64,000 nucleotides of DNA. Origin: Candidatus Brocadiia bacterium. Its GTDB lineage: Bacteria; Planctomycetota; Brocadiia; CAIUPP01. The position numbers were made by a program, and so were the translations under genes. Within the stretch, counting starts at the first letter, position 1. Each line of letters begins with the position of its first letter. Of this stretch, positions 38,907-61,913 are shown in pieces. The DNA lies in NCBI GenBank assembly GCA_050015075.1, contig JBEKCB010000010.1:1-64000 (forward strand), read 5' to 3'. Below the pieces are notes generated by a model. The model worked only from the letters and a program-made list of their open reading frames with translations, was not told where the DNA came from and did no database searches.

Positions 38907-39332
38907 TCATGACTCTCTTCCGGGCGGTTGGTCGCGCAGCTGGTAGTTGTGCCAAGCGATCGTCAGCAGCCATCGCACTTGAAACGCCAAAGTTGCTACA
39001 CCTGCGGCGAAATCACCGTAGTTGAGCAGTTGGCCCGGTCCTACCCCTTTATGAAGTTCGGCCAAGCTAAAATACTCCAACACCGCGTAAGTCGGCAGGA
39101 ACAGCGCGAGAAACACGCAGGCGAGCATCCACAGGCCGCGCTCATGCTTCCATTTCCCGAACGCGCCGCCGCTCGCACCGAGGCCGATCAGGAAAACGCA
39201 TGTGCACAGTCCCAGACCGCTGGACAGGCGGCATCCCAAGGCGAACAGCGCCGCCCCGGCCAGCATGATCCACCGAAAGCGCCGGATCACCCAGTCAACT
39301 GTTTCAGGCTTCAGAAAGAGTGACATCTGCAT
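38907..39332 (-). CDS. Small multi-TM membrane protein
   Basis: About four hydrophobic segments; starts 21 bp after the CHAT-1 stop on the same strand. Confidence 0.7.
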   Translation of the reverse strand: MQMSLFLKPETVDWVIRRFRWIMLAGAALFALGCRLSSGLGLCTCVFLIGLGASGGAFGKWKHERGLWMLACVFLALFLPTYAVLEYFSLAELHKGVGPGQLLNYGDFAAGVATLAFQVRWLLTIAWHNYQLRDQPPGRES

Positions 39333-39352
39333 TCCCGCGCGGGATCCGCCAA

Positions 39353-42106
39353 TTATCGGTAATCGCCGTAAAGCACGAACGCTCCCCAGTAATAAGGATT
39401 CTCGTACTTCTTCATCATCGTAAGCTGCGCCTTTTGAAGCGCTTCAGACTTCGTGAGCCCTGCCAGGAGGTTCTTGTAGAAGAGTTCCATAAGCTCTGCG
39501 GTCGCGCGGTCGTCCACGCACCAGAGGCTCGCCAGGACGCTCGGCGTGCCGGCATACAGGAAGGCGCGCGTCATGCCCATGAACTCGAACCCGCTTCCGG
39601 TGACCTCGCCTGTGCCGGTATTGCAGGCGCTCAGGGTAACCAGGCCGGCGTCGAGGTTCAGATCGAAGATCTCCCGCACGGTGAGCACGCCGTTGTTTTC
39701 ATTATCCCCCGCCAGCCGAAGATTCGAGAGCATCGGCTCCGTCTGATCCATGACGCCGTGACAGGCCAGGTGCAGCACGTCGTAACCCGGAGACAGCTTG
39801 ACGAAGGCGCTCTTGCTCGCCTCGGCGCCTCGCAGGAGGACGCTCTGCGGGAATAGCTTCCCCACGGACTCCGCCTCGACCTCCGCGAACTTCAGTACCG
39901 AGCCGGCCTCCACCAGTTGCGGATTGGCAAGGATCAATGCCTTTTCCATCTTCGGTTTACGTTTTGCCTGACAGAACTTCAGGACAGATCCGCTGGGCGC
40001 GCAGGAGATCGAATAATCCTCCAAGAGATAACGCCCGTTCTCGTCCTTCAGGCAGGCGAACGGGACCAGGTTCATGCCGCCGTATGGCACAATGATGATT
40101 TGCTTCGTTTTTATATAGGGCCTGACGGGTTTGAAGAATTCTTTGTACAGTTCTTGACAGGCTTTGTCCCAGTCTGGATCGGCCCGGGCCTTGGCGGCGG
40201 AATTATCGCCGGCTTTCCGGAAACGCTGGCACAGGCGCTGAACTCGATCATACTGAAAGTCCACACCATGAATGACCTGGAAGCTGTCTCGTGTGACAAT
40301 AGCAATGAAACACTCGTCGTCCTCCCCATTGATCCCTGGCCCGGTTTGGCCGGAATACTCGATCAGCGTGGCCTCGCCGAGGATTTCCTGGATCTGCGGC
40401 AACGTCAGCGGGTCCACCCGGGTCAACGACGTGATTTCCTGATCGGCAAGGCGGACATGCGCTTGCACGGTTTCGAGCGCCTGCGACTGGACCGCCAAGT
40501 CGCGTCGGGCGCTGCGAAGCCCATCCGCCTGACCCGTTTTTTGCAGGAGCGCGACTTGATCCTGGAGTTGAGCCACTTGTGTTTGCAGAGCCTGCACTTG
40601 CATGCGCCGCTGATCATTGAGTTGCTCCCGTGTCTGAGTCGTCTTCCCGCCCATGAGAGCCAGGAACGACGCGGCCCTCGCCCGCTCCGAGGTGAGAAAG
40701 ACCTCCTCGTACCGGCCCAGATGCAAGCAGGCCGCTATTACGGAGCCATATGTGAAGCGGAAGCTCTCAAAACTCAAGGCGGCCCGTTTGGCGCGCTCAT
40801 CAATAACCCGGTTCACATCTTTCTCAAAGTTTGTGACCTGCGCCATTGACTGCTCGTATTCGGATTTGAAGTAATGTTGGTCCTTCTCCGGGTCGGGGTC
40901 AACGGGAGGATAACCACATTCGCGCAAGAGCGCATTCTCCTTATCATAATTCTTCATCTCCGCATATCTTAAGGCCATCGTGTACTTGCACAGCGTCGCC
41001 TCCCCGTTCCATCCGTGCTTTTCGGCGATGGCCAGGGCGTGCTCCAACTCGCCGATAGCCAAGTCGTAGCGAAACTGGCCGGACCAGACCCAATAACTGT
41101 TCGCCAGCACATGGTAAGCGTCGTAAAGCGTCCGATCATCGTTGCCCCGCTTTGCCGCTTCCACTGCAGCCAGAGCGTGCTCATGAGCGGGTTTGCCGCG
41201 CGGGCCCCGCACTTCCTCTACCCGGTTGGCGAAGCCATGATACATGAAAATTTGCGCGGCGGCCGCGTGCGCCCGACTTAGAAGGCAAGGGTCCTTGGAT
41301 TTTTCCGCTGCCGTGATGGCGCGCGGGATAAACGCTTCACCCCTGTCGTAGTCATTCATCACAGTGGCGCAATTGATCCGCGCGATCAGGGCCTCTGTGT
41401 GTTCAGGATTGATCGCGATCGCCTTGTCAAGCCAAAGCGCCTCCTGCGACGGCCTTGTGAGTCTGTTATACCCCTGGCTGACGCGGAAAGCTGAATCCGC
41501 CGAAGGCTTGTCCATGAACTCTTTCTCTGCGGCGCGGATGGACTTGGTCGCGTCGTCATTTCTCTTGATCCAGTACTCGACTTCCTGAACCTTAGCCTGC
41601 GCTCCGACGCGCTGGTAGTGCGCCAGCGCGCGAGGCGCGTCATTGGCGCCGGACCGGTCAGGAGTCCAGCGCGGGACGAAACCATAGTAGTAGTCGCCCA
41701 GGAGAATATCCGGTTGAGCAGCGTGAATGCGCACGTAACGCACCTTCGGGTACATCTCGGCGGCTAGGGAGAGAAATTTCTCGCCCTGGACTGTCGCGCC
41801 CGTTTTCATGCAAGAGTCGCCCAGCCGATAGAGCAGTTCGAAGTCCCGGCAACCCAGTTCGTAAGCCTTTTCAAAACTCAAGCGCGCCTTGAACGCGTCC
41901 TCCTCGACAAGCAAGAGCTCGAGTCCGTCGCGGACGCAGTTGTCCCACTTGGGATCATGTTGGCCGATTTCCATATACTCGACGAGGCTGCACTGATATT
42001 CGCATCTGGGCTGGTCCGGCTGGGGCGAGGCGAGACTGCCGCGCATGCAGAAACCGCCGGCGAACAAAACGGCCAATGTGAACACGGCCTTCTTCGCATT
42101 TTCCAC
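39353..42106 (-). CDS. Signal-peptide TPR-CHAT caspase-like protease (CHAT-1)
   Basis: IIVPYGGMNLVPF, catalytic HLACHG and VTLSACNTG, SLWCVDD, NPYYWGAF; TPR-like N-terminal half; hydrophobic N-terminus. Confidence 0.93.
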   Translation of the reverse strand: MENAKKAVFTLAVLFAGGFCMRGSLASPQPDQPRCEYQCSLVEYMEIGQHDPKWDNCVRDGLELLLVEEDAFKARLSFEKAYELGCRDFELLYRLGDSCMKTGATVQGEKFLSLAAEMYPKVRYVRIHAAQPDILLGDYYYGFVPRWTPDRSGANDAPRALAHYQRVGAQAKVQEVEYWIKRNDDATKSIRAAEKEFMDKPSADSAFRVSQGYNRLTRPSQEALWLDKAIAINPEHTEALIARINCATVMNDYDRGEAFIPRAITAAEKSKDPCLLSRAHAAAAQIFMYHGFANRVEEVRGPRGKPAHEHALAAVEAAKRGNDDRTLYDAYHVLANSYWVWSGQFRYDLAIGELEHALAIAEKHGWNGEATLCKYTMALRYAEMKNYDKENALLRECGYPPVDPDPEKDQHYFKSEYEQSMAQVTNFEKDVNRVIDERAKRAALSFESFRFTYGSVIAACLHLGRYEEVFLTSERARAASFLALMGGKTTQTREQLNDQRRMQVQALQTQVAQLQDQVALLQKTGQADGLRSARRDLAVQSQALETVQAHVRLADQEITSLTRVDPLTLPQIQEILGEATLIEYSGQTGPGINGEDDECFIAIVTRDSFQVIHGVDFQYDRVQRLCQRFRKAGDNSAAKARADPDWDKACQELYKEFFKPVRPYIKTKQIIIVPYGGMNLVPFACLKDENGRYLLEDYSISCAPSGSVLKFCQAKRKPKMEKALILANPQLVEAGSVLKFAEVEAESVGKLFPQSVLLRGAEASKSAFVKLSPGYDVLHLACHGVMDQTEPMLSNLRLAGDNENNGVLTVREIFDLNLDAGLVTLSACNTGTGEVTGSGFEFMGMTRAFLYAGTPSVLASLWCVDDRATAELMELFYKNLLAGLTKSEALQKAQLTMMKKYENPYYWGAFVLYGDYR

Positions 42107-42155: not shown

Positions 42156-43715
42156 TTACTGGGACACGGAAACACTGAACTTCCGCGTTCTAGCATCGAA
42201 CTGAAGGCGCTGCTTGTTCGCCTGAAACCACGCCCGCAACTCTTCGTCGCTGCCGCGCTGATCGGTGTAAGTCAGCATCAGGTCTCGGGGCGAGAGGCGA
42301 TAGTCCTCCGGGATCCAAGGTTTGGAGAGGAAGTCCGCCGCGAATTCCAGCCCTTCGACCATGCCGTAGTCAAGCAACACCACGACCATTCTCGTGCGCC
42401 ACCTATTCCCGGAACGCAGCCATGCTTTTTGAATCAACGCCGGCGGCAGGACAAGGCCCGGGATGCGCTGGATGGCTTCATAAGTAATGCCCGGATCGGT
42501 GCCATAGGCGAAGTACCACTTCAGGTCTTCGTATGTGGCCGGATCGCGCAGGTCGGCGACCGCTTCGAGCCACTCCGCGGGCAGGTAATCCGGATGCTCA
42601 GCGAGGCGTTTAACCAGAATCGGCTTGGCTTCCTGGGTCCACTGACGCAAGCGCACGACCGAGGCAAGATCGTAATCCATCTCAAGCGATCCCAGAATCA
42701 GGGACTTGTCCTCGTCGGTGGCCATCCGTTCGATGCATCGAAGGCATGCCCGCCCGATGTATGGATCGGCCCGATTCAAAAGAAGGAGGTCCAGGTAGTT
42801 GTGGCCGACCGGCTCCAGGTAGGCCGCGATCCACTCCGAATCCGCGGGGTCGTCGGACGCGCGCGCGGCCTCTGCTACCTGCCGCAAGTACATCCGGACC
42901 GCGTCCCGGTCAGCGCCGGAGGGCAACCTGAGTTGTTCTGACTGGCCCGTTTTTTCGTCATGCGCCAAGTCGAGATTCCAAGGCAGCTTGACCCACGGGC
43001 TGTCGGAGTCTGTGCGAAACTTTTCGAGCAGCTTTTTGTATTCCTCTCCTTCGCGCAGAGTTTGTTGCAGCGACCAGAAACGCCGGCCGATGAGATAGTT
43101 GTTTCCAAGGTCTTCCCACGAGTCAAATGTGCTCTGCAAAGCCCGGGCGACAGGCATGATGCGCTCCCAGGCTTCGGCTTCCGACAGGTAGCCGACACAG
43201 TATCCCCAGCGGCATACCGAAACATAGCGGCAGTAGTCCCAACCCAGGATACTTTTCTTGCCCAGCCGCTTGTAATATTGCGCTGCAACCTCCATAGCAG
43301 AGTTCGCCTGCGCATTGTTCTTATTCTTCGCCCTGAGGGTGTTCAGCTCATCAGGAGTCAGCGCGGCGATGGTGGACCCCATCCTCTCAAACCGCGCGCG
43401 GTGTCCCTCTTGTTGGAGCCAGCGCAGCGTGTTAAGGAGGTCCTCGCGGTTCGAGACGCTCCACGATCCTCGGAGGGACATCTTCCACCCGCTGATGTCG
43501 CTTGCAGTCCTCTCGCACCCGGCGAGCAGGTCATGACGTCCATGGTTCCGTTCCGTGAGAAGTGCGCACGTCGCAAGCGCCCAGAGTTTTTGGTCACTGA
43601 GTTTGTGCAGCGAGGCAAGGTCCGCCGATCGCTCATCTTTGTCGGACGGCGTCCCGCCTTGCGCTGCCGCGCCAACAACGACCGCGCAAAAGAACAATGA
43701 GACAAATCGCATCAT
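42156..43715 (-). CDS. Secreted DUF1266 (YbeU/YbeR-like) protein with a C-terminal domain shared with 46615-48000 and 48119-49549
   Basis: Signal peptide; GWDYCR...RWGYCVGYLSEAEAW...FDSWEDLGNNYLIGRRFW; C-terminal LRDPATYEDL...WFQANK. Confidence 0.82.
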   Translation of the reverse strand: MMRFVSLFFCAVVVGAAAQGGTPSDKDERSADLASLHKLSDQKLWALATCALLTERNHGRHDLLAGCERTASDISGWKMSLRGSWSVSNREDLLNTLRWLQQEGHRARFERMGSTIAALTPDELNTLRAKNKNNAQANSAMEVAAQYYKRLGKKSILGWDYCRYVSVCRWGYCVGYLSEAEAWERIMPVARALQSTFDSWEDLGNNYLIGRRFWSLQQTLREGEEYKKLLEKFRTDSDSPWVKLPWNLDLAHDEKTGQSEQLRLPSGADRDAVRMYLRQVAEAARASDDPADSEWIAAYLEPVGHNYLDLLLLNRADPYIGRACLRCIERMATDEDKSLILGSLEMDYDLASVVRLRQWTQEAKPILVKRLAEHPDYLPAEWLEAVADLRDPATYEDLKWYFAYGTDPGITYEAIQRIPGLVLPPALIQKAWLRSGNRWRTRMVVVLLDYGMVEGLEFAADFLSKPWIPEDYRLSPRDLMLTYTDQRGSDEELRAWFQANKQRLQFDARTRKFSVSVSQ

Positions 43716-43773: not shown

Positions 43774-46590
43774 TCATCTATAGTCTCCGTACAACACAAA
43801 CGCTCCCCAGTAATAAGGGTTCTCATACCTCTTCATCATCACCAGTTGCGCCTGCTGCAATGCCTCGGCGCGGCCCATGGTTTTCAGGTTCTTGTAGAAT
43901 TCGGCCATCAGTTCGCTGGTCGCGCGGTCATCGAGCTTCCAGAGGCTGACCACGACCGACGGCGCGCCGGCGAGGAGCCACGCGCGGCTCATGCCGACGA
44001 GCTCGACCCAGCCGGTGGACATGCCGCCGGATCCGCTTTCGCACGCGCTGAGCACCACCAGGCCTGCCTTCACCGGATAGCTGCAGATCTCGCTGGCGGT
44101 CAGCCTGCCGTCGCTTTGATCGTCGGGCGCCAAAGCCAGCGCGGATTTCATCGGGTAATCCGCGTTCAGCAATCCGTGACAGGCGAAATGCAGGACGTCG
44201 GCCGTGGTCAGCGCCTGCTTGACCGCCGTCGCGGTGGCTTGCGCGCCGAGGAGCACGTTCGCCTTCGGGAAGACTTCGCGGATCGCGGCGGCTTCCATTT
44301 CGGCGAACTTGAGCGATGAGTTCGGGTTGGGCAGCGCGGGGTTGGCGATGACGGTGACTTCGCCGCCGACCCGGCGGTTCCGGGCCAGAGCATAGCGCAG
44401 GACGCCGAAGCTGGGGACGTAACTGACGCTGTGCTCCTCGAGCAGCAGCTTGCCGGCCGGGTCGCGCAGCAGGTGCATCGGCACTTGGACGAGCAGCCCG
44501 CCGGGAATGATGATCAGATGCTTGCGCGACTTGATGTCGTCGGCGACCGGCTTGAGGAGCAGTTCGTAGAGCGCGTCGTTGGCCTTGCGCAGTTCGGCGG
44601 GATCGGGCCCGGGCGCAGGCGTCTGGATGGCTTTGACGTAGAGTTGCACGATGGGCTCGATACCCGGCTTTGTGTCACCCGCATCCGGGAGGAAGAGCCC
44701 GCGGCAAGGGTAAACCTTGCATTCCGTGTCGGTCACAAAGGCAATGAAGCCTTCATCCACGAAGCGCACCCACGGGACGAAATACAGGAGGACCGCCGCG
44801 TCGGCAGGCAGCAGCGCCTGCATCTGCTTCACCGTCATGTGCGGCGGGATCTTCGCGCCGGTGACCTCGAGTTCGTCGGCCGCGACGTCGGCGCTGACCT
44901 GTTGAAGGGCGGTGGCCTGGACCTGAAGGTCCCGCTGGACGGATTCGACGGCGGCGGCATCGGAAGTCTGCCGCGCCAGGGCCAATTGGCGAGTGAGCGC
45001 GGCCACGTGCGATTGCGCCGCCGACTGGGCGTCCTTGCGCTGCGCCAGGGAGGCGGCCTTGCTCTCTTCGAATTTGGCGCCGAGGATCATGCCGAGGGTG
45101 CGGTTCAGCAGGCGCTCGGCGATCTCAACGGCCTCGTCCTGCTTCCCGAGGTGCATACAGGCCGTAATGGCATAGTCATATGCCCCGCGCTGGTTAGCGC
45201 CGACGACCTCGCGCTGGAGCCGTTCATTGGGCGCACGCAGCGTCATTTGCTCGAAACCGTCTATGCTGGGCTTCTCGTGGTCATAGATGTACTGCCAGTC
45301 ACCGCGCTGGACGCGAACGACGATGTGCGGTTGGATGCCGGCCTTTCGGGCCCATTCTTCGGACTCATCCAGCTTGCCCATAAAGGCGAGACGCTGCGCA
45401 ATCATGAACATCGAGTCGTGGGTGCGGTCGGTCCAATGATTTTTCTGCGCCAGCGCGAAGGCCTTTTCGTAATATTCGACGGACGTATCGCCTCCGACCC
45501 CGAGAAAGCCCATTTGGATAAAAGCGCGGAAGCGCAGGTTGTCATTGTTCAATTCTTCGGCAATGGCCCCGGCGCGCGCCGCCAGTTCACGGCGGTTGTA
45601 CTGGCGGAGCCTCTCGATGTTCGCCGGATCGGGATTTTCGAGGAGGTTATCCCAGACAAAAGCCGCCTGCGTGTGGAGCACCCAGAACAGACACTCGCGG
45701 TCCCCGGACTTCTCGACGATCTGGATCGCTTTAACACCGAAATCCTCCGCCTCTTTCCACTTCTTGACCCCGCACAAAATGAAGTGGTGCATGCGAACGA
45801 CGTCGGGGTCTTCGGGCGCATTGGCCAGGAGCACCTCCGAGGCCGGCAGGGCTTTGGCGAAGTCCATCCACTTGTGGTGATTCTCCCAATCATCAGCCCG
45901 GTGACCGTTCGCCGTGCCTGGCAGATTGTTAAATGGGCTCCAGTTGCGCTCGGCCTCCGCTTCAAGGACTTTAAGGACTTTCCTGGCCGCGGCCACGCTG
46001 GGTTCGGCGGCGGCTTTCGCCAATGTGTCTGCTTTTTCCTCTTCACCTTTGGCGAGGGACTCTATCGCCGGCAGGTTATCCGCCAACTGCTGCTTCTCGG
46101 GGCAGTCCGGGTAGGCCTCCAGCGCCGCGCGGACCAGCTTGCCGGCTTCCACCACTTCCGCCGGCCGTCCCTGGCCGAGATCAGCGTAGGCCTGCCATTG
46201 CAGGCATGCGCCGCGCACCCAGGTGCGCACCCACTCGGGCCGGCCGGGCTCTGCGGCGGCCGCAGCGCCCTTGCCCAGGATGTCGTGGCTCGCGGACAGG
46301 TCGTTCGATTCGAACAGGAGGTATCCATACATGAGGAGCACCGTCGGGTCTTTGGCGCCGCCCTCGATGAGCGGCTTCAATTCCGCCAGCGCTTCGTCAC
46401 GATTCTTCCTGAGCGCGAGCGCAGCCTTGTAAACGGCTGCATCAACCTTGAGGTCCGGCTCGCCGTAGGCGGAGTAGAGACTGTACCAACTGAATTGGGA
46501 CCAGAGGGTGATCCGGTACCCTTGGTCAGCACTCGCGGCCACGCTCGTCATTCCGAGCGCCAGTGCGAGTGCAATCATTTTGAAGCGCAT
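43774..46590 (-). CDS. Signal-peptide TPR-CHAT caspase-like protease (CHAT-2)
   Basis: Clear signal peptide MRFKMIALALALGMTSVAASA; HFACHG, VVLSACESG, SLWKLDD; C-terminus YENPYYWGAFVLYGDYR identical to CHAT-1. Confidence 0.93.
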   Translation of the reverse strand: MRFKMIALALALGMTSVAASADQGYRITLWSQFSWYSLYSAYGEPDLKVDAAVYKAALALRKNRDEALAELKPLIEGGAKDPTVLLMYGYLLFESNDLSASHDILGKGAAAAAEPGRPEWVRTWVRGACLQWQAYADLGQGRPAEVVEAGKLVRAALEAYPDCPEKQQLADNLPAIESLAKGEEEKADTLAKAAAEPSVAAARKVLKVLEAEAERNWSPFNNLPGTANGHRADDWENHHKWMDFAKALPASEVLLANAPEDPDVVRMHHFILCGVKKWKEAEDFGVKAIQIVEKSGDRECLFWVLHTQAAFVWDNLLENPDPANIERLRQYNRRELAARAGAIAEELNNDNLRFRAFIQMGFLGVGGDTSVEYYEKAFALAQKNHWTDRTHDSMFMIAQRLAFMGKLDESEEWARKAGIQPHIVVRVQRGDWQYIYDHEKPSIDGFEQMTLRAPNERLQREVVGANQRGAYDYAITACMHLGKQDEAVEIAERLLNRTLGMILGAKFEESKAASLAQRKDAQSAAQSHVAALTRQLALARQTSDAAAVESVQRDLQVQATALQQVSADVAADELEVTGAKIPPHMTVKQMQALLPADAAVLLYFVPWVRFVDEGFIAFVTDTECKVYPCRGLFLPDAGDTKPGIEPIVQLYVKAIQTPAPGPDPAELRKANDALYELLLKPVADDIKSRKHLIIIPGGLLVQVPMHLLRDPAGKLLLEEHSVSYVPSFGVLRYALARNRRVGGEVTVIANPALPNPNSSLKFAEMEAAAIREVFPKANVLLGAQATATAVKQALTTADVLHFACHGLLNADYPMKSALALAPDDQSDGRLTASEICSYPVKAGLVVLSACESGSGGMSTGWVELVGMSRAWLLAGAPSVVVSLWKLDDRATSELMAEFYKNLKTMGRAEALQQAQLVMMKRYENPYYWGAFVLYGDYR

Positions 46591-50447: not shown

Positions 50448-50771
50448 CTACGGTTCCGTCGTGTACATGTCGCTCCCGACGCTATCGCGCAAGAGCTGTT
50501 TGAGACGTGAGCGCAACAGCAGATGGTCTCCGAATCTGTTGAGTCCGGTCCACCCTACAAGCAGTGGAATGATGGCAAAACTAGGCACACGGACCCGGTC
50601 CGCCGAGTTGCACGCGATGAGTAGAAAAAGGCCGTTGCCGAGGCAGGCCACTAACGAGTCAAGAATGAGGTCCCATCCGCTCGGCTTCATCCGGCGTAAC
50701 CGCTCGACGATGACTGAAATATCTGCTTGCACCGCACTACGGGCTTGCTTGGCGTTATCACTCTCCGTCAT
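50448..50771 (-). CDS. Small 2-TM membrane protein
   Basis: ATGA overlap with the upstream gene; two hydrophobic segments. Confidence 0.6.
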   Translation of the reverse strand: MTESDNAKQARSAVQADISVIVERLRRMKPSGWDLILDSLVACLGNGLFLLIACNSADRVRVPSFAIIPLLVGWTGLNRFGDHLLLRSRLKQLLRDSVGSDMYTTEP

Positions 50772-54700: not shown

Positions 54701-56602
54701 CCATCTGTGCGCCCATAAACCGTCCCTCGCTAACGGATTTTCTTTTTCACCCGGCAGGATCGCGGGAATTTCGCGGGCCAGCATTTGAAGGCACGTCTCG
54801 GCATCCTTTGAGTATCCCCAGCCATCCTGGAACGCCGCCGCGTACGTGGCAAACCGCACCACCGGATCCGGGTGATTCATCAACCAGTGAAACGCCTCTT
54901 GAATGCCGGGATAGAGCGCCGAGTACGCCGCCTTCGGATCTTCCGACGGGAGAAGATTGTTGAACACCCGGGGAAAACATGCCTCCATGGCATATTTCAG
55001 AGGAACATATTTCCAGACTTGGCCCGTCATCCTGGGCGCGCCGGGCGGCGGATTCTCGATCTGGCCCACGACCTCCTGGATACTGGCCAGCCACTCCTCG
55101 GCGCTTCCCGCTATGTCGTGACCGTAGCGAAGACGTTCCGCCAGCAGATCCATCCAAACGTTCGCGGTGCCCTTTGTTCGACAGATTTCCGTTGCGATGG
55201 CCATCGCCTCACGATATTGACGCAGCCAGGCTTGCTGAAGTTCAGCGAAGAGCTGGCGGGCCTCGGCTGATCCTGTTTCACGGACGGCCCTCCTATAGCC
55301 GTATAAATCCTTATTGACATACAAATCGTGACCGCCCACCAGAAAGATCTGACTAAGCGAATTCCCGCAAAGTTCGCCTTCATCAACCTCGTGATTCTTT
55401 TCCCACCGACTGAGAACCTTATCGCGAAAACCTTGATATTGCGCCTTTTGATAGAGGACCAGCGCATGCAAACCCTCGATCGTTGCGTGTGTCCTGGCTT
55501 CCATGGGGAGTTCGCGATCATAGGCGCGAGTATCATAGAGTGCGACGCGAAAATACATCCCCTTCGCCCTTGCCACTATTTCGTCGGACGGATCCAGCGC
55601 CACAGCGGCCTGCGTACGGGCAATTACGCCGTCAGTGCCGAACGCGGATTCGGTTTCCGCCTGATTCATGAAGAGCTTGGCTTCCTCGGCCGGCGATAGC
55701 GTTCGAAGGCCGGCCGGTTCAGAGTTGAGTTTCTCCGCGATCTCGCTGACCATCTGCGTCCGTAATCCCGCAAGATTCTCAAGGGAACCGTTGATGTGGA
55801 CATACTCTGTCTTATCCCCGTTCAACGATTGCAACTCCACTGTGGCCACCACCTCATTCCGGGTTGCGCCGTAGGCTAATCCGCCCTTCAGAAGCACCGC
55901 CGAGGTTCGCAAAGCCACCTCCGCGCCGGCCAGCGTTTTTTCCGCGGTCAAGTGCTCGAGACGCTCGCGCTCCAGGACGATGACATTGGGCGAATTGGCA
56001 AGATCATTGAGAAGGAACATCGAAAGCATATCGGCCAGCGAATCGAGCGAGTCGTCCAAAGCCTCGCTTCGAAACACAAGGAGGGCCACGTACCGTCTGT
56101 TGTTCGGCGGATAGCTCAGCTTGCGGCTCGCCAGATCAATGAGCGACGTGACGCCGGACAAGTCGGTGAGCAGCGTCTCCTGCAACTGCATGCAGGAACA
56201 CAGGATGATCCCGGTGCGCGCTTCCACCGCTCGAATTCTGCAAGTGGGTCGCACGGACTCCTTCGCTGCCTCGAATAGTGCAGGCGGCGGCGGAGGAGCA
56301 TCAACGACCAGAAACATGTCTACGCCCAGTATTTGCCCGACCTGGATCGCTTTGCTCGGCTCCATGAGTCCTGCCGCCGACAACTGCTGCTCCGCCAGGA
56401 CCTTATTGATCAGCGCGCGCTCGACCAGCGTAACCTGCGATTCCTTCGACAGGCCCGCTTCGATGGTTGGCACAACGAAGTCCGCCAGCGTCGACTTGCC
56501 CTTTTCGCCGATCACCGCCACGCGGGTGGCCGCCGCCCATGCTGCGGAGGGCAGAGCGATCGCCAGCGCCACAATCAGCAAACCTTCTCGCACCCTTGCC
56601 AT
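51800..56602 (-). CDS. Large secreted protein: two CsgG/HfaB-like domains, helical region, probable beta-propeller, two LamG-like domains
   Basis: Signal peptide; LVERALINKVLAEQQLS and VLERERLEHLTAEKTL; TEADGLPS propeller motif; duplicated MTAEAWI...WLHIAMVFDG..LRNYING...FNGRI. Confidence 0.85.
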   Translation of the reverse strand: MARVREGLLIVALAIALPSAAWAAATRVAVIGEKGKSTLADFVVPTIEAGLSKESQVTLVERALINKVLAEQQLSAAGLMEPSKAIQVGQILGVDMFLVVDAPPPPPALFEAAKESVRPTCRIRAVEARTGIILCSCMQLQETLLTDLSGVTSLIDLASRKLSYPPNNRRYVALLVFRSEALDDSLDSLADMLSMFLLNDLANSPNVIVLERERLEHLTAEKTLAGAEVALRTSAVLLKGGLAYGATRNEVVATVELQSLNGDKTEYVHINGSLENLAGLRTQMVSEIAEKLNSEPAGLRTLSPAEEAKLFMNQAETESAFGTDGVIARTQAAVALDPSDEIVARAKGMYFRVALYDTRAYDRELPMEARTHATIEGLHALVLYQKAQYQGFRDKVLSRWEKNHEVDEGELCGNSLSQIFLVGGHDLYVNKDLYGYRRAVRETGSAEARQLFAELQQAWLRQYREAMAIATEICRTKGTANVWMDLLAERLRYGHDIAGSAEEWLASIQEVVGQIENPPPGAPRMTGQVWKYVPLKYAMEACFPRVFNNLLPSEDPKAAYSALYPGIQEAFHWLMNHPDPVVRFATYAAAFQDGWGYSKDAETCLQMLAREIPAILPGEKENPLARDGLWAHRWMDIFLWTYNNDPDLLIKYGDAILRPMLRLEHARLASEWNWANCIKFWLSAFENEGRFREAYEIAKDFQDTVNVTFPPNLDAQGDAKSHIGFLERQLGLAAPPAPKPQAPDLRPEQFVVKLLTTETGYRVNAIQPDGNRAVLLEAGSEGDQGDRVRLVAVPLDGGNRSILGEIMLKPAAKRNLHCTAVLTRDEAGQWLASMSDIGIVTFEKGKTRLWTEADGLPSLKLTSFACLNGKWYLGTSPGAIVEFDPKTGRSATLCSCRRSEAPQNLFDGLPTYDVPYILSDPVRNCIWFGINNTQGHETRRGLWKFDAASRKISFASERLEHIERAHARWCFDRILIQGIGLYDPATDSICYLTEHAYTRSKKDPWPCGPVREYWPVGVFGDKIICEPDPDWPNVISSQVKVEFFNDQPPLTLRAQDILGQQLLAVECRDAVVIAGEDSTPVFAVRDKGGAPSFERLEEAVKRSEAEVKRSEAEVKLFREQMKRPPPITGPQGTPVPQRAVISFDQSASTGEIRVGYNPVFNNMTKAMTAEAWIWADDPTHGEIMTRDTPKLGPWQLRITLDGKLESDVAPANWNPSPESTYRRLPTRTWLHIAMVFDGRELRNYINGHKVSACPEEPQLTTNDNNLLIGRFFNGRIAGARLSSEALYKEDFTPPARLTKLPSTVMLLPLDEGQGITAEDESGNGCIATIVNGTWMTVPVDEFQPDPAHEAEVKQIAAETRRIKEQMRHPPPKPGPQGTLVPQRPVISFDGNEGEIAVQYNPVFNMTKAMTAEAWIWADDPARGIIMTRDTPKLGPWQLRITPDGKLESDVAPFNWKPSPENTYYPLPTKTWLHIAMVFDGQELRNYINGRKVSACAEEPQLTTNDNNLLIGRRFNGRIAGARLSNEALYKEDFTPPIRLTKLPSTVMLLPLDEGQGSTAEDESGNGCVAVIAHGTWITVPVDEFQVNAAAAAVTPQGNPR
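51848..53235. repeat. Near-identical tandem duplication of the LamG-like domain (period ~726 bp)
   Basis: CTGAAACTCATCCACCGG starts at 51848 and 52574; long identical blocks follow both. Confidence 0.9.
53259..53306. repeat. 21-bp tandem repeat encoding (VKRSEAE)x2
   Basis: ttcacctctgcctccgaccgc / ttgacctctgcctctgaccgc / ttcacc. Confidence 0.85.
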
Positions 56603-56687: not shown

Positions 56688-57482
56688 TCATTCCTGCAGA
56701 TTGGCTTCCATGTGCACGTATTCAGCTCCATGCCAAAACGTGACTCTCACAACGATGTTATCGCTGACCCAGACATCCGACCTGATCCCGGGAAATGACT
56801 CCTTGTATCTGACGCAATCATAAAACTTCTTTCCGATTATAAGCCTTTCGGTCCCCTCGCACGTTATGGTACCTGCCTGCACCGCCCAAATATCAAAAAG
56901 GACCGGCTCTGCATACTGCGTGAAGGTGTAGACGCCGCCGATGTTTCGAGGAAGCAGTGGGGCGAGTCTCAGCAGCGCGTTGAACGTCAGAATGCCCTCC
57001 TGGAAATTCCATTGTTCCGTCCGGACAGGTCCGCGGCCATTGGGATCATCGAGTATCTTTGCTGTTCCATTCTCATAACTCATTTCGCGCACTGTTCTGT
57101 CGTCTTTGCTGATATCCAGAGTGATCTGCTGTGGACGGAGCAAATCACCTTTTGGAAATCGCACCATTCGGTCGAAGACCATGCCGCCAAAGGCCGGCAC
57201 CACGGCGATAGTGTCATGCAAGACAATGTCGTCTTTGTCAGATTGAGTGGACACGACCATCTTTCCGTATTCCTTGCTTTCTCCCTTCAGGACGATGGCC
57301 GTCCATGTGTAAGTGTGGCTTCCGCCCTTTTCCAGTTTCTGCAGGTCAAAGGTTACGTCCTTCAGCGGCTTTGGTGGGACGCTTTCGTCCGCCGCCAGCG
57401 CCTGCATCGTGAAAGTAATACATGACAAAACGGCTAAGGCCGCCGGGATGACCGTCACGGTAGAACGATTCTTTCTCGTCAC
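56688..57482 (-). CDS. Secreted beta-rich hypothetical protein, visibly lower GC
   Basis: GGAGA RBS before GTG 57482; signal peptide ending QALA. Confidence 0.7.
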   Translation of the reverse strand: MTRKNRSTVTVIPAALAVLSCITFTMQALAADESVPPKPLKDVTFDLQKLEKGGSHTYTWTAIVLKGESKEYGKMVVSTQSDKDDIVLHDTIAVVPAFGGMVFDRMVRFPKGDLLRPQQITLDISKDDRTVREMSYENGTAKILDDPNGRGPVRTEQWNFQEGILTFNALLRLAPLLPRNIGGVYTFTQYAEPVLFDIWAVQAGTITCEGTERLIIGKKFYDCVRYKESFPGIRSDVWVSDNIVVRVTFWHGAEYVHMEANLQE

Positions 57483-57614
57483 GCGATCTCTCCATGGGTG
57501 CACACTATGGCGTGTACGTGCATTTCCTCCCGCCTGCGATTAGATTTCACCTCTCCCCGCCGGCGCCGCCGGTCGGCCTTCGCCGGCTAGTCTATGCTTC
57601 ACCTCTGCAACAAT

Positions 57615-58676
57615 CTACTTTTTCTGCTCGGCCAGTTTTGTGCGGGCCTCCACGGCCTCCGGGATGAGCTTCAGGGCGATTTCCGCGGCGGCTTTTTGTA
57701 GCGCGGACTTCCCGGCGATATTCTCGGCGAGGTCCACGGCTGTGGTCGTGGCGCGGCCGACGGCGAGGATCTTGCCGCTCTTGACGTCCACCGCCTTCAT
57801 CTCCACCCGCGCCTTGACGGAGATGAGCTTCTCGGTGGTCCCGGCGTATTCGCTGAACCCCTCGCCGACGATGATGATATCCGCTTCGCTGAGGCCGTTC
57901 GGGATCTCCTTGCCGGTTTCCTTGAGGAAGTCCCTCGCCCAGTCGCTCAGCCCGGCGTTCTTCGTGCTGATGAGCGTGGCGCCGACGGATTCGAGGAGGT
58001 AGCCCACTTCCGTCTCGGCGGCCGGATCAATGGTCATACGCCCGACGTGCGTTTCGCAAATCAGGACGGCGAATTTCGGCAATGTCTTGCCCTCAAGCCG
58101 CTTCTGCAGCGCCGCGATCATGTCCTTTTCGGTCACCACTTTCGGCATCATGGCGGCGGCCTTGTCGGCCATGTATGCGCTGATCTTGGTCCCCAGGTCC
58201 TGGACGATCTCGTCGAGTTTCCCGTCGGTGGGTCCCTTGGCGATGAGCGCGCCGACCTGGCTGGTCTCGGTGCTCATGATCTTGGCGGTGATGAAGAGCT
58301 GCTGGCCGACGATCATGGCCCGGCCGGTGATAAGGAACTTCGCGCCGGTCAGCTTGCCGATCTTCGCCTTGGTGGCCTCATCCACGATCCCGGTCTGCCC
58401 CAGGGCCATTTCCTCGAGGATCTTCTTGATCTGGGCCCGCTCGACCAGTTGCAGATTGCTGTCCGCCGTCAGGAACGCGGTCAGCAGGTCGGGGATCGCC
58501 TCGCCATAAGAAGTCGTCTCCTTGGTGCCGGTCTCGAAGTTCAGCACGGCGACGAGATAGGGTCCTCCCGGCGCCTGCGCGGCCTTCTCCGGAGCCTTCT
58601 CCTGAGCCAGTCCTGCCGTCGCCAACCACGCCAGGGCCAGCACGGCCACGCTCACAAACAATCTCCCGCACTTCAT
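57615..58676 (-). CDS. CsgG/HfaB family secreted protein
   Basis: GGAGGAGG RBS; signal peptide; VAVLNF, LVERAQIKKILEEMALGQTGIVD...KIGKLTGAKFLITG; second related domain. Confidence 0.85.
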   Translation of the reverse strand: MKCGRLFVSVAVLALAWLATAGLAQEKAPEKAAQAPGGPYLVAVLNFETGTKETTSYGEAIPDLLTAFLTADSNLQLVERAQIKKILEEMALGQTGIVDEATKAKIGKLTGAKFLITGRAMIVGQQLFITAKIMSTETSQVGALIAKGPTDGKLDEIVQDLGTKISAYMADKAAAMMPKVVTEKDMIAALQKRLEGKTLPKFAVLICETHVGRMTIDPAAETEVGYLLESVGATLISTKNAGLSDWARDFLKETGKEIPNGLSEADIIIVGEGFSEYAGTTEKLISVKARVEMKAVDVKSGKILAVGRATTTAVDLAENIAGKSALQKAAAEIALKLIPEAVEARTKLAEQKK

Positions 58677-58719
58677 GGTCCTGCCTCCTCCCAAAAATAA
58701 ATTTCGCTGCCCCTTGTGC

Positions 58720-60315
58720 CTATTGACCATCCTTGTCCTCCTCCAGCATCATGTTCGCGAGAATCTGCCTCACCAAGCGCGCTTGCGATTCGTTCTCCGG
58801 GTCCTCCACCGGCAGCGCGCACAAAACCAACCTCGCCTTGCCTCGTCTGAATTCCGCCAGCAAGCCCGGCTCGGTGATGGCCAGGAATTCCGGGACATCC
58901 GGCTCGGCGTTGAGGCTGCGACGATCTTCCGCTTCTCCAAGGCTCTGCTGGAAGTCTTCCGCCGAAATGCCCCAGGCCAGCGGCTTGGCGTATCGGATCT
59001 GGATGGGCCTCTGGTCCTCCACGGATGCTGCCACGAACCTTGGCAGGGGAAGATACGGTTTGTCCTGCCAAGCGGAGCGAGCCAGATGGTTCACCGCCTC
59101 CAAGAATTCCGGCCCGAATGGAGACTGGACAAAGAGCTTTCCGCCATCGGCCATGTAGCTGTCCAGGTCGAAGCCCGGAGTTATGGAGCCTTCATCCCCT
59201 TTGGGAAGAAGGAGGACAATCACCCCGGCCGCGCTTTTCAAGTCCTCCTTCTTCGGCTCCAGAACGAATCGCGTCGTGTTGAATTTTCCGTCCGTCAACG
59301 CCTCGGGCGGGACCGCGAAACGCGCGGCCTTGCGCCGGGCCGGCAGAGGGACTTCCCGAGCGTAGGAGAGCAGGTTGCGGAGGACCAACTGCGCCACCGG
59401 CTCCTTCGCAAGCCGGCGACCTACTTCCAACTGGCACACGATGACGCGCCCATTCTCGCCCCAGTACTGCGCAACCAGCGGCAGATTGTCCTTTCCCTCG
59501 CCTCCGGTGAGCCAGGCCTGGTAACCCGGACATTCCGGCCAGGCGAGGACGTGCGAGGCCACCTCTCCCGAGCCGGCCCAGTCGGCCAGATCTCCGTCCA
59601 GAAGATCGCGCAGCAGAATGTGCTTCTCGCCAACCAGTTTCCGAGCTGATGAGACCGCCCGTTTCACGACTTCCACCGGCTTCTCAGGGTCGAAGAACCC
59701 AGTTCTCGGCAAACTCTGCTCCAGGAAGATCACTGTCCCGCCGCGCTCGATCAACTCTTGAATCCCGCTCATCGGCTCGGACAGCGTCTCCGGCTGATTC
59801 GGGCCGACGAGGACGAGCTTGCTCTCCAGTGTCCGCACTTGCAGGTCCGTCTTGAGGAGTTCGTACTTTACGCCCGCTTTCTCAAGGATCGGAGCCAGGA
59901 GCTTTTCAGGGTCGCAGAGCCCGACCGGCGGCATATCGGCCGTCGCCCGGCCCAGCTCGGGCAGGGCGTCTCTCGAAAAAAGTGCCAGGGTGAACTCACC
60001 TTCGGCCAGCACGTTGCCGTCGCGTTTAAGCTGGACCTGCTGGATCATGTCCACGCGCGCGCGGACCTCGGGAAGCGTCATCTCAATCGTCACATTCCCC
60101 GGAGCGTCCACCTTGCGGCTTCCGCGATTTACGATGCCCCGGAGCACGCGCGCCTCCCAGGCCATCTCGTACTGGCCCGCGCCCTCAATCTTGAACGTTC
60201 GCTTTATGGTCGTTCCTCCAAAGGTGCGCTGCGGTCCACCCACGAGCGAAAGGTGCGGCTCGCCCGCCTGCGCCAGCAGCGCTGCGGCGAGAGCCAGGAC
60301 AAGGCTCAACTTCAC
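58720..60315 (-). CDS. Secreted hypothetical protein with trimerisation/glutamine-amidotransferase-like segments
   Basis: GTGA overlap with the anti-sigma stop; signal peptide; ELIERGGTVIFLEQ, GRVIVCQL...EPVAQLVLRNLLSYA, loosely repeated. Confidence 0.7.
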   Translation of the reverse strand: MKLSLVLALAAALLAQAGEPHLSLVGGPQRTFGGTTIKRTFKIEGAGQYEMAWEARVLRGIVNRGSRKVDAPGNVTIEMTLPEVRARVDMIQQVQLKRDGNVLAEGEFTLALFSRDALPELGRATADMPPVGLCDPEKLLAPILEKAGVKYELLKTDLQVRTLESKLVLVGPNQPETLSEPMSGIQELIERGGTVIFLEQSLPRTGFFDPEKPVEVVKRAVSSARKLVGEKHILLRDLLDGDLADWAGSGEVASHVLAWPECPGYQAWLTGGEGKDNLPLVAQYWGENGRVIVCQLEVGRRLAKEPVAQLVLRNLLSYAREVPLPARRKAARFAVPPEALTDGKFNTTRFVLEPKKEDLKSAAGVIVLLLPKGDEGSITPGFDLDSYMADGGKLFVQSPFGPEFLEAVNHLARSAWQDKPYLPLPRFVAASVEDQRPIQIRYAKPLAWGISAEDFQQSLGEAEDRRSLNAEPDVPEFLAITEPGLLAEFRRGKARLVLCALPVEDPENESQARLVRQILANMMLEEDKDGQ

Positions 60316-61313
60316 AGGTGATTCCCTTTCCCCGGCGAAGGCCGGCTGCCGGCGGTGATGGACCGCATTCCGGCCCACATATAAAGCTCGTGCCGCCGAG
60401 TCGCGTCGCCGCTGGCGCCGAGGAGCACCGGCGTCCCTTCTTTCACCATGACCTCGGCGTTGATGGGCGAATCTATCACCGGTCTCTGTTCCGCAGCCTC
60501 CGGAACCTCGCAGTCGAAGGCAATCCGCGCACTGATCTGCCCGCTCTTTTCTTTCGCGGCTTTGACACGATAACGGAACAGGTCTCTCGAATCGCGGTCA
60601 CGGCCGGAGAGGCGTACCGAGGCCTCCTCACCCGGCAGCAGGACAAACTGCGGGTTCGACAAAATGGTGGTCTTATTGTCGCTTTGCCGCTCGACGTACT
60701 GAAGTGTGACGACGACGACCTCCCGCGCAGCGTTCTTTTCGCCGACCGTGTTTATCCCGGAGCCGGACATGCCGACTTCCACCTGGTTGCCGTCAATGGC
60801 CATCCAGCGCATGGCTCCGCCCAGGTAGTCCTGGACGGAAACGAATGCCTGGACTTGCTCCGCTGATCCGTTCTCGATCAGCGCGTTTTTCGGCAACCGG
60901 CCGGCCGGGAGCGGCATGAAACTGCTCCCACCCCTAGGAGCAGTTTCAATTGCCACACCCGGCTGCCGCGCTTCCTTCTGGCGGACATGCAGCCGCCATG
61001 CGAGCAGCATGACCGCCGTCGAGAGGATGAGGATCGCCGCGATCGCCATGATCCGGAACGAAAGAGAGACGGGGCGACGCTCCGTCATCTTGACTTTTCG
61101 CCAGATTTCCTCGCGCAGCCGCCGGGAATAATCCGGCGGAAGATCCGGCGCCGAAACGGAACGCACCGCCGTGTGCAGGCGACGCTGCTCCCATTCCTGC
61201 TTCTCGCAGGCCGGACACTGCGCCAGGTGTTCGTGCAGGGCCGCCTGCTCGGCGTCCGAGAGATCGTTGTCGAGCAGCCGGCTGATCAGTTGAGAGCTTG
61301 TCTCGCAATTCAT
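60312..61313 (-). CDS. Zinc-binding (zf-HC2) transmembrane anti-sigma factor
   Basis: MNC...HLAQCPAC (HxxxCxxC), single TM, directly downstream of the ECF sigma. Confidence 0.9.
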   Translation of the reverse strand: MNCETSSQLISRLLDNDLSDAEQAALHEHLAQCPACEKQEWEQRRLHTAVRSVSAPDLPPDYSRRLREEIWRKVKMTERRPVSLSFRIMAIAAILILSTAVMLLAWRLHVRQKEARQPGVAIETAPRGGSSFMPLPAGRLPKNALIENGSAEQVQAFVSVQDYLGGAMRWMAIDGNQVEVGMSGSGINTVGEKNAAREVVVVTLQYVERQSDNKTTILSNPQFVLLPGEEASVRLSGRDRDSRDLFRYRVKAAKEKSGQISARIAFDCEVPEAAEQRPVIDSPINAEVMVKEGTPVLLGASGDATRRHELYMWAGMRSITAGSRPSPGKGNHL

Positions 61314-61340
61314 GTCACGTCTCCCTGTCCCAAGTACTCT

Positions 61341-61913
61341 TCATGGCTCCAGATAATCCGCAAGCATGTCCCGCAGGAGCTGCCGGGCCTTCCAGACCCG
61401 CCAGGCCACAGTCCCTTCGGGGAAACTCAGTATGCGCGCGACCTCTTTGTACGAAAGCCCCTCCTGCACGATCAGGGTGAGCGCCGCGCGCTGGTCGTCG
61501 GGAAGTTTCATGATCGCGTCGCTCAGGAGCCCGGCGAACTCCTTTTCGCGCAACGTCTCGAGCGGGCCGCTTGAGGACGACCGCCGCGAGTCCGCCGGTG
61601 GATCGGCCAGCGAAACCGTTTCGTGGCTCGAATGTCGCTCGCGTCGCAGGTCCAGCGCCTTTCGCACGGCAATGGAATAGAGCCAGGTCATGAACCGCGA
61701 GCGCCCCTTGAACTGCCGCAACGAACAGTAGGCCTGGACAAAGGTATCCTGGGTCACCCCGTCCGCCTCGTTGGCACTGCCGGTCAATCGGCAGGCCAGG
61801 CGATAGACGCGTTCGTGGTGGGCTTGCATGAGCTGGTCGAATGCCTCGTGATCGCCGCGCTGGGACCGCCGGATCAGTTGGGTTTCGACGGTTTCATCCA
61901 CGCCTGCCTCCAA
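61341..61913 (-). CDS. ECF sigma-70 factor
   Basis: GDHEAFDQL, QDTFVQAY, FKGRSRFMTWLYSIA, GLSYKEVARILSFPEGTV. Confidence 0.95.
   Translation of the reverse strand: MEAGVDETVETQLIRRSQRGDHEAFDQLMQAHHERVYRLACRLTGSANEADGVTQDTFVQAYCSLRQFKGRSRFMTWLYSIAVRKALDLRRERHSSHETVSLADPPADSRRSSSSGPLETLREKEFAGLLSDAIMKLPDDQRAALTLIVQEGLSYKEVARILSFPEGTVAWRVWKARQLLRDMLADYLEP

Follow-up and report, generated by a model that had tools for sequence, protein, structure and literature searches.

A locus of a Brocadiia bacterium in which an extracytoplasmic function sigma factor heads genes for envelope-type proteins, a DUF4384 protein and two predicted exported TPR-CHAT proteases

The window analysed here is a stretch of 64,000 nucleotides of a Candidatus Brocadiia bacterium (assembly GCA_050015075.1, contig JBEKCB010000010.1, positions 1 to 64,000), and from 38907 to 61913 it contains 15 co-oriented genes on the minus strand, headed by a sigma factor gene of the extracytoplasmic function (ECF) type and a zinc-finger anti-sigma gene. 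Downstream, this locus encodes proteins with a CsgG N-terminal-like (CsgG-N-like) fold, a DUF4384 protein and two TPR-CHAT proteins of the caspase-like type; judged by gene content, these belong to two gene sets that recur separately in other genomes. A preliminary description of the stretch, which counted about 16 genes behind the sigma and anti-sigma pair, was right about the orientation and the head, and the count is 15: 14 minus-strand open reading frames (ORFs) of 141-1643 amino acids (aa) and one 107-aa ORF at 50448-50771. Start codons were shifted to the Met or Val preceding each hydrophobic N-terminal stretch of the signal-peptide-bearing products. From the head of the locus, the features are:

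Promoter motif, 61948..61975, minus strand: ECF-type motif CAAR-N17-CGTCYAA; its end lies 34 nt before the TTG of g1
g1, 61341..61913, minus strand: ECF sigma factor, 190 aa, TTG start, cytoplasmic
g2, 60312..61313, minus strand: single-pass zinc-finger (ZAS-type) anti-sigma factor, 333 aa
g3, 58720..60315, minus strand: predicted exported protein of no known family, 531 aa from the GTG at 60315
g4, 57615..58676, minus strand: predicted exported protein, 353 aa, two tandem PelC/LpoB/CsgG-N-like alpha/beta domains
g5, 56688..57482, minus strand: predicted exported protein, 264 aa, possibly DUF3108-like
g6, 51800..56602, minus strand: predicted exported giant protein, 1600 aa, two CsgG-N-like domains, an unassigned centre and two Laminin_G_3 repeats
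g7, 50768..51775, minus strand: predicted exported, possibly lipidated (LLAC) protein, CsgG-N-like domain fused to DUF4384
g7b, 50448..50771, minus strand: small membrane protein, 107 aa, two hydrophobic stretches
g8, 49546..50412, minus strand: membrane protein, 288 aa, hydrophobic segment at residues 58-76, no Pfam family
g9, 48119..49549, minus strand: predicted exported alpha-solenoid protein, 476 aa, paralog of g10
g10, 46615..48000, minus strand: predicted exported alpha-solenoid protein, 461 aa, TPR-like N-half and HEAT-like C-domain
g11, 43774..46590, minus strand: predicted exported TPR-CHAT protease, 938 aa, dyad H805/C850
g12, 42156..43715, minus strand: predicted exported DUF1266 protein (Pfam 3e-47) with a HEAT-like C-domain of the g9/g10 type
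g13, 39353..42106, minus strand: predicted exported TPR-CHAT protease, 917 aa, dyad H783/C828
g14, 38907..39332, minus strand: small membrane protein, 141 aa, two hydrophobic segments; last gene, after a 20-nt gap from g13

With the shifted starts, the intergenic gaps range from -4 to +132 nt, none inside the locus being longer than 132 nt, and 4-nt overlaps are found at three junctions: g2/g3, g7/g7b and g8/g9. The ATG of g7b overlaps the g7 stop (ATGA), and this gene occupies an apparent 355-nt gap after g7. Gene order and spacing point to one operon-like, co-transcribed unit behind the sigma and anti-sigma genes; scans for sigma-70 promoters (seven found, 4.3 expected) and for terminators (11 found, 20 expected) were uninformative. 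Ten of the 15 products (g3, g4, g5, g6, g7, g9, g10, g11, g12 and g13) have signal-like N-termini and look Sec-exported, four (g2, g7b, g8 and g14) have transmembrane (TM) helices and g1 is cytoplasmic, in keeping with the preliminary description, in which most products carried signal peptides or TM helices. Pfam was run on 14 locus proteins and PADLOC on 10 of them. NCBIfam gave nothing specific among the locus proteins beyond generic sigma and anti-sigma names, and PADLOC gave no family for nine of its 10, the other, g13, showing one weak match to BovA (E 0.0025). In homolog and profile searches of the 4.64-Mb genome, each locus family except the sigma factor is confined to this locus.

The g1 product contains sigma regions 2 and 4 (Pfam Sigma70_r2 6e-15, r4_2 6e-12 and Sigma70_ECF 2e-7; NCBIfam sigma70-ECF, scoring 93 bits where 43 is the cut-off), and its gene lies upstream of g2 with a spacing of 27 nt. 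The g2 product shows a zf-HC2 domain (1e-8) at residues 3-36, a single hydrophobic segment at residues 88-106 and an ectodomain of about 225 extracytoplasmic residues (about 107-333) with no assigned family. A protein that has both of these regions, encoded ahead of a zf-HC2 protein with a single TM helix, is the arrangement of an ECF sigma factor and a class I zinc-finger anti-sigma factor. Orthologs of g1 in loci L082-L085 show 35-57% identity, and the 26 homologs of g2 (35-96% identity) are mostly full length, with syntenic copies in genomes G002, G003, G407 and G031. The g3 product shows no family in Pfam, NCBIfam or PADLOC; the Atlas contains this protein with the same start, and its Atlas neighbours are unnamed proteins throughout. 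In G002, G407 and G031 the corresponding position is occupied by a g3 homolog (23-41% identical), and L088 and L089 contain weaker ones. For g5, Pfam gave no family and tblastn of the syntenic loci no homolog. DUF3108 clusters make up the three best-listed of its feature neighbours in the Atlas (scores 0.96-0.97), and this can be taken only as a lead.

The g4 product matches Pfam CsgG (1e-12, profile positions 11-97 of 210) and LpoB (7e-5). In an AlphaFold2 (AF2) model computed from four orthologs (pLDDT 74), g4 folds into two alpha/beta domains in tandem, and the Foldseek matches of the model are HpaA, GNA1162, LpoB, CsgG, PelC, TolB-N and FlgT, at E values from 1e-6 to 1e-4. The g6 product shows Laminin_G_3 in two stretches (2e-29) and CsgG (8e-8), which a local hidden Markov model (HMM) resolved into two N-domains, and g7 shows DUF4384 (8e-24) and CsgG (6e-8). 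All CsgG matches on g4, g6 and g7 are partial (profile positions 11-104 of 210) and accompanied by LpoB matches. Since the channel-forming part of the CsgG profile is unmatched and the fold matches are spread over PelC, LpoB, HpaA and TolB-N, these domains are of the PelC/LpoB/CsgG-N lipoprotein fold and not a curli channel. The locus shows neither a full-length CsgG nor csgE/F/A/B neighbours, and Pfam found no curli family among its proteins; the earlier CsgG/FlgO label was thus an overstatement of a partial N-terminal fold. This fold is common in periplasm-facing outer-membrane lipoproteins, several of which form rings or scaffolds.

Genes g11 and g13 encode the TPR-CHAT proteins, with CHAT (PF12770) matches of E 1e-69 (235 bits) and E 6e-76 (256 bits), respectively, against a curated cut-off of 24 bits. 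As had been claimed (HxACHG and LSAC motifs), both retain the His/Cys dyad: g11 shows HFACHG at residues 801-806 and LSAC at residues 847-850, and g13 shows HLACHG at residues 779-784 and LSAC at residues 825-828. H783 and the LSAC cysteine of g13 align to the CHG and GAC of Csx29, and in a 14-row alignment (A4) the H783 and C828 columns are nearly invariant. Both proteins are very probably catalytically intact proteases, to judge from the dyad. They are also very probably extracytoplasmic, to judge from their signal-like N-termini, that of g11 being MRFKMIALALALGMTSVAASA. Only two close relatives of g13 were found, P0011 (80%) and P0012 (66%), the second annotated as Laminin_G_3 plus CHAT, and g13 alone as query found no relative in the genome contigs. 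Co-folding of g13 residues 250-917 with g7 residues 25-335 gave a score of 0.00 in a run that had no controls and so speaks neither for nor against an interaction, and g11 may be the better partner given locus L096, described below.

The solenoid proteins g9 and g10 are 63% identical and share a C-terminal region of about 270 aa with g12 (32-34% identity); part of the N-terminal region of g9 (residues 76-130) matches the g13 N-terminus with 38% identity, the range for g9 and g10 being 29-38%. The AF2 model of g10 is all helical (pLDDT 85) and shows only generic TPR/HEAT matches in Foldseek, every one with E >= 0.01. A profile of its C-domain found 762 cluster representatives in 1.84 billion proteins. 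Ten of these were examined: seven belong to no family, weak HEAT_2 matches occur in two, and the remaining one is a BlaR1-type Peptidase_M56 with PDZ. By word search the g9/g10 family is tiny, with nine matches in 5.8 billion proteins. The search of the genome contigs with the g9/g10 alignment gave a sole, distant C-domain match, L028 of a Verrucomicrobiae metagenome-assembled genome: at 8144-10798 this locus encodes an 884-aa protein with no Pfam family that ends in a HEAT-like domain of the g9/g10/g12 type (34%); 7 kb upstream of it is an ECF sigma gene, and tblastn detected no CHAT in its vicinity. The last gene, g14, has no Pfam family.

The first gene set, hereafter module A, contains the sigma factor, the anti-sigma factor, g3, g4 and a g6-like gene. 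Full-length or near-full-length g2 matches were found in five of 132 genomes of the class, and four of these loci were fetched. The order g1-g2-g3-g4-g6-like is syntenic in three of them (G002, G407 and G031) and G003 retains g1-g2 only; g4 is the best-conserved gene of the module, with 43-61% identity in G002, G407 and G031. No CHAT, DUF4384 or Peptidase_C14 (C14) gene was found in the fetched DNA of the four genomes. A g4 profile matched 12 of 301 genomes of the phylum at E <= 1e-10. All six of the more distant phylum loci with a near-full-length g4 homolog show an ECF gene at a distance of 1-3 kb, in five of them in the same orientation, and also encode other large proteins of the CsgG-N-like kind. 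In one of these loci, G042, an ECF-CHAT pair divergently adjoins an ECF-g3-g4 arrangement. In G002, a genome of the same family, an operon (L083, G002:C60, 2916-19998, together with L087) opens with genes for an ECF sigma factor, an anti-sigma factor, g3-like, g4-like (61%) and g6-like proteins and continues with a Trypsin_2+PDZ (HtrA/DegS-type) protease gene and a gene for a 782-aa PDZ protein, and then with genes for no fewer than five additional CsgG-N-like proteins, of which one shows weak BNR/GH43 matches; this makes at least seven in total. These comparisons of sequence identify the actual conserved unit as an ECF-headed operon for PelC/LpoB-fold envelope proteins.

The second gene set, module B, contains an exported TPR-CHAT protein and a DUF4384 protein, and in the window comprises g7-g14, with the two TPR-CHAT proteins, g7, the three solenoid proteins and small membrane proteins. 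Among the 301 phylum genomes, 61 contain DUF4384 and 156 contain CHAT. DNA of up to 10 kb on each side of the top 60 DUF4384 matches gave 57 loci, the window's own being left out; these were scanned with home-made HMMs built from sequences of this analysis, and the family counts are lower bounds. CHAT lies within 10 kb of DUF4384 in 11 of the 57 loci (10 of them within 2.7 kb), Peptidase_C14 in 20 (seven fused) and one or the other in 30, and 16 loci show a kinase fused to DUF4384. An ECF sigma gene is found within the same distance in nine loci, CHAT plus ECF in five, and a CsgG-N-like domain in eight (five fused, three adjacent). The rough chance of finding CHAT near DUF4384, estimated from first-look CHAT candidate counts per genome, is at most a few percent per locus and about 13% in the most CHAT-rich genome. 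Among ten CHAT-adjacent DUF4384 proteins, Pfam found DUF4384 together with Pkinase in six and with C14 in one, by itself in two, and beside a weak CsgG match in the last (G005); the usual DUF4384 partner of CHAT in the phylum is thus a kinase-TM-DUF4384 protein. In the window, DUF4384 is likewise partnered with a caspase-fold protease, g7 lying 4.2 kb from g11, and the two are directly adjacent in L096 and G005.

Signal-like N-termini were found in 15 of 18 CHAT ORFs next to DUF4384, and exactly one hydrophobic segment between the domains in 13 of 15 kinase-DUF4384 proteins. Locus L058 (G298:C36, 4394-10419) contains co-oriented genes for a CHAT protein, an ECF sigma factor and a kinase-DUF4384 protein, and there the CHAT protein lacks a signal-like N-terminus and the kinase lacks the hydrophobic segment; judging from these sequences, it looks like a cytoplasmic version of the trio. 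The two majorities, together with this exception in which both features are absent, suggest that CHAT and DUF4384 share a compartment.

Several observations connect the two modules. The g7 protein joins the module A fold to DUF4384 on one polypeptide. In G005, of the same class, L011 (G005:C76, 9125-14060) shows three co-oriented genes for exported proteins, namely a Peptidase_C14 caspase with a lipoprotein-like N-terminus, a TPR-CHAT protein (756 aa, 36% identical to g13) and a CsgG-like-DUF4384 protein, with a GGDEF protein gene upstream. A metagenome scan with g7 gave eight loci, among them L096, in which a 74% identical g7 ortholog is directly followed by a g11-like TPR gene; this gene runs to the end of the contig and is 45% identical to g11 over residues 234-658. 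The Laminin_G_3 domain annotated on P0012 beside CHAT is the C-terminal domain type of g6. The CAAR-N17-CGTCYAA motif upstream of g1 has a single exact match in the window and four exact copies among the 101 loci fetched. Three of these precede g1 orthologs (L082, L083 and L084), by construction, and the sole independent copy lies in L096, about 115 nt upstream of the g7-ortholog ATG. Its background is about one per Mb, with three exact matches in the 4.64-Mb genome and two to eight in block shuffles, and with one mismatch allowed its matches in the window do not exceed chance (four against 2.8 expected). Classical ECF promoter patterns (GGAAC...CGT) were rejected as candidates, none being found upstream of g1 or its orthologs except one site in L093. 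Co-occurrence read from shared longest-sequence values (g2 85% with g13 80%, 60803; g2 80% with g10 54%, 65637) was also set aside as unreliable, because L095 (6917 nt) contains no g10 homolog, though P0007 lists 6917.

On the evidence of gene content, then, the locus is a composite of two separately recurrent modules and not one conserved system. The preliminary description had presented it as a single system, which does not hold for the set of 14-16 genes: the set is absent from a same-genus genome, and the head module occurs without CHAT in eight of nine other genomes. The co-occurrence of CHAT, CsgG, DUF4384 and ECF that it had put forward for testing stands in part, with CHAT near DUF4384 in 11 of the 57 loci and an ECF gene as well in five of these 11, and fails for CHAT plus a CsgG-N-like domain, which none of the 57 shows.

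For the window itself, we tentatively prefer a reading, held with slightly less than even confidence, in which the locus is a single sigma-driven operon and the periplasmic CHATs act on or with the DUF4384 scaffold protein and the solenoid adaptors. Here we infer co-transcription, export, protease activity, the identity of the substrate and feedback on g2. Released sigma factor would transcribe the whole unit from the promoter at 61948-61975, and the CHATs would bind or cleave g7, perhaps also g6 or the solenoid proteins, g9, g10 and g12 serving as three putative exported alpha-solenoid adaptors. The action of CHAT on g7 would be a periplasmic counterpart of the cleavage of Csx30 by Csx29, and its outcome could be either remodelling of the scaffold or a signal returned through the anti-sigma factor.

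One competitor is a switch in trans, in which the exported CHATs would be site-1 proteases clipping the g2 ectodomain, an RseP-type protease would finish the cleavage and the freed g1 would induce its own operon, the envelope signal being sensed through the TPR/HEAT solenoids or DUF4384. It is modelled on DdvA of Myxococcus xanthus, which, according to the part of the report available, is an anti-sigma factor with a periplasmic TPR-CHAT, bound to the ECF sigma factor DdvS; its authors propose CHAT autoproteolysis as a site-1 step before RseP, and CHAT cleavage of DdvA is unproven (PMC11506125). The same source makes outdated the premise of the preliminary description that the characterised CHATs are cytoplasmic. 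Fusions of zf-HC2 and CHAT among g13 relatives (P0024), M50 site-2 proteases encoded in the genome and the autoregulatory-looking g1 promoter are consistent with such a switch, as is G002, where the position of the HtrA-type gene, followed by the PDZ protein gene, after the g6-like gene indicates that this form of the operon includes a periplasmic protease. But an HtrA-type gene is found in only one of the nine other module A loci, the g2 orthologs of G002, G003, G407 and G031 have no CHAT nearby and contact between CHAT and g2 is purely putative, so we consider this switch unlikely.

Several points weigh against the single-operon reading, and most of them are also those on which a mere juxtaposition would draw, that is, the insertion of an independent CHAT/DUF4384 cassette downstream of an unrelated ECF operon, with no functional coupling. 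Eight of the nine other module A loci show no CHAT in the fetched DNA, and none of the 57 DUF4384 loci shows CHAT plus a CsgG-N-like domain, nor, accordingly, does any of the 11 with CHAT. Four other contigs with diverged g7 orthologs (L094, L095, L098 and L100), though short at 3.7-6.9 kb, show no CHAT, and the same-genus genome G001 (91% complete) shows no CHAT, DUF4384 or g2 match. The GC content of the locus is 0.57-0.63 against 0.64-0.68 in the left flank, and module B or the whole locus may have been inserted recently; this lower GC and the absence from G001 suggest recent acquisition. The single-operon reading is further weakened by two matters of method: export was judged from hydrophobicity and from N-termini read by eye, with no trained predictor, and five upstream regions, those of g1 orthologs among them, were compared by eye to obtain the promoter motif. 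Against a juxtaposition stand the fusion of the module A fold to the module B domain in g7, the L096 motif, which ties a g7-CHAT pair to a g1-type sigma factor, the independent neighbourhoods of module A or its fold with module B in G042 and G005, and the lack within the locus of any gap over 132 nt and of a second exact promoter motif. Juxtaposition without coupling is therefore judged unlikely as well, to the same degree as the switch.

A role in envelope assembly or maturation, in which the PelC/CsgG-N-like proteins would form an outer-membrane platform that exports or anchors g6 and the CHATs would be maturation or quality-control proteases rather than signalling enzymes, is quite unlikely. 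It would fit the matches to PelC, CsgG, LpoB, FlgT and HpaA, all ring or scaffold lipoproteins, the G002 operon with at least seven such proteins and an HtrA-type protease, and the LamG+CHAT fusion among g13 relatives. It fits poorly with the CsgG match, which lacks the channel-forming part of the profile, and with the locus proteins, among which Pfam and NCBIfam found no polysaccharide-synthesis, secretion-ATPase or curli subunit family, and the repeated ties of DUF4384 and CHAT to kinases and sigma factors point instead to signalling. Anti-phage or inter-bacterial conflict, in which exported CHATs would sense or destroy a periplasmic protein of an invader, a role that has been proposed for DdvA (PMC11506125, as far as its available text goes), is very unlikely: the distribution is patchy, the GC island-like and CHAT a common effector in conflict systems (PMC10907252, in the part available), but PADLOC gave no more than the weak BovA match of g13 among the 10 proteins scanned, Pfam found no nuclease, toxin, CBASS or CRISPR family in the 14 proteins, and module A is vertically conserved across families.

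Beyond the single-operon reading of the window, a wider proposal may be stated, although it is doubtful: exported TPR-CHATs and extracytoplasmic DUF4384 would form a widespread periplasmic caspase-like relay in Planctomycetota, in which CHAT binds or cleaves a DUF4384 bait mounted on Ser/Thr kinases, PelC-like scaffold lipoproteins or C14 caspases, and the event is relayed to an ECF sigma factor. If true, the relay would be an envelope counterpart of Csx29-Csx30(DUF4384)-RpoE, and the window a version wired to a classical anti-sigma and scaffold operon. Bacterial CHATs are mainly known as cytoplasmic defence effectors, and the periplasmic DdvA has no known signal or substrate. The locus and its relatives offer stand-alone CHATs, predicted to be exported, with candidate partners next to them: the DUF4384 protein, the solenoid adaptors and the anti-sigma ectodomain. 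The substrate of a periplasmic CHAT and the role of DUF4384 become directly testable with purified proteins. Module A in turn defines a conserved, unstudied family of ECF-headed operons (sigma factor, anti-sigma factor, g3 and PelC/LpoB-fold proteins); little is understood of the envelope biology of this phylum. No title or abstract listed in the literature searches, supplements not being covered, describes this operon family or the CHAT-DUF4384-kinase neighbourhood; the genomic-context tables of the ECF reclassification could bear on this (PMC7826278).

The DNA of the stretch is present, in part or whole, in 24 public sequencing runs, 23 labelled peat and one wetland, with at least half of the sampled words in 15 of the 24; none of the 24 is an RNA run. 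Each of four runs that had not been marked as possible sources covers every one of the 30 bins of 42300-62299, and in these, identical contig pieces span the g12/g11, g11/g10, g9-g7 and g6-g4 junctions. The locus DNA is real and an assembly artefact is excluded. Runs X7 and X9 contain, beside the identical one, a second diverged variant of g6, g5 and g4 (window 51900-52500 and 56400-57900), with many substitutions and a 3-nt deletion at 56292, which indicates co-existing strains. A JGI contig of 2814 nt, L101, is a mosaic of a g6-like fragment, the g7 C-terminus (96% identical), the N-terminal 200 aa of a g9-like protein (63%) and the last 56 residues of a g11-like CHAT (93%), and represents either a variant of the locus with a deletion or a chimera made in assembly.

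On the side of g14, the next ORF listed on the minus strand (37640-38392) encodes a 250-aa protein with a 3keto-disac_hyd (DUF1080-like, lectin-fold) match and ends 515 nt downstream of g14. A sigma-70-like promoter match lies between the two genes at 38574-38547, and the 3keto-disac_hyd gene is probably a separate unit. Further along, positions 1-36000 of the window show a GC content of 0.61-0.68. On the side of g1, a divergent gene 380 nt away (plus strand, 62293-64000 in the window and on to C10:65508; L029:294-3509) encodes a 1071-aa protein with no Pfam family, with genes for a major facilitator superfamily (MFS) transporter and an EAL+HDOD protein farther out.

Among known systems, DdvS/DdvA shares with the locus an ECF sigma factor beside a single-pass zinc-finger anti-sigma factor, a periplasmic TPR-CHAT that has a His-Cys dyad and a proposed tie between CHAT activity and sigma release through RseP. 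It differs in that the CHATs of the locus are two separate proteins with predicted signal peptides and g2 carries no CHAT, its ectodomain being an unrelated 225-residue domain; a phmmer search with g13 gave no DdvA chain at E <= 0.01. Moreover, the DdvA regulon is a CBASS/CRISPR island, whereas the locus encodes scaffold, DUF4384 and solenoid proteins. In the sigma-E/RseA/DegS/RseP system, a regulated intramembrane proteolysis pathway, an ECF sigma factor is likewise paired with a single-pass anti-sigma factor; here too the genome encodes M50 site-2 proteases, and in the relative G002 a periplasmic protease of the HtrA type is encoded with the pathway. Unlike in that pathway, the candidate site-1 enzymes are caspase-fold cysteine proteases rather than DegS, and no RseB-like partner was recognised. 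The PelC/LpoB/CsgG-N/FlgT/HpaA lipoproteins resemble the g4 model in fold and g4, g6 and g7 in their Pfam CsgG/LpoB matches, but the locus contains no curli, Pel or flagellar genes, and g4 is tandem and has no lipobox cysteine. The Planctomycetes loci with an ECF sigma factor and a Ser/Thr kinase (STK), L022, L023 and L058, show CHAT, DUF4384 and the sigma gene within a few kb, as the window does; in these loci the transducer is a kinase that carries DUF4384, whereas in the window it is a zinc-finger anti-sigma factor and DUF4384 lies on a scaffold-fold protein. An ECF-STK classification was reportedly given by Jogler in 2012. In type III-E CRISPR, Csx29, with catalytic residues H615 and C658, cleaves Csx30, which binds RpoE, and the Csx30 C-terminal domain is a DUF4384 in some lineages, a domain often fused to proteases (bioRxiv 10.1101/2022.08.17.504292, in the part available). 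This Craspase resembles the locus in its TPR-CHAT dyad, with which g13 aligns, and in the three-way link of CHAT, DUF4384 and sigma factor. It differs in being cytoplasmic, RNA-guided and Cas7-11-bound, the partners in the locus being predicted to be exported; Pfam gave neither a Cas nor a CBASS family for the 14 locus proteins, no CRISPR-array search having been made. The window is thus a new wiring of a known theme, with stand-alone exported CHATs beside a classical anti-sigma and scaffold operon.

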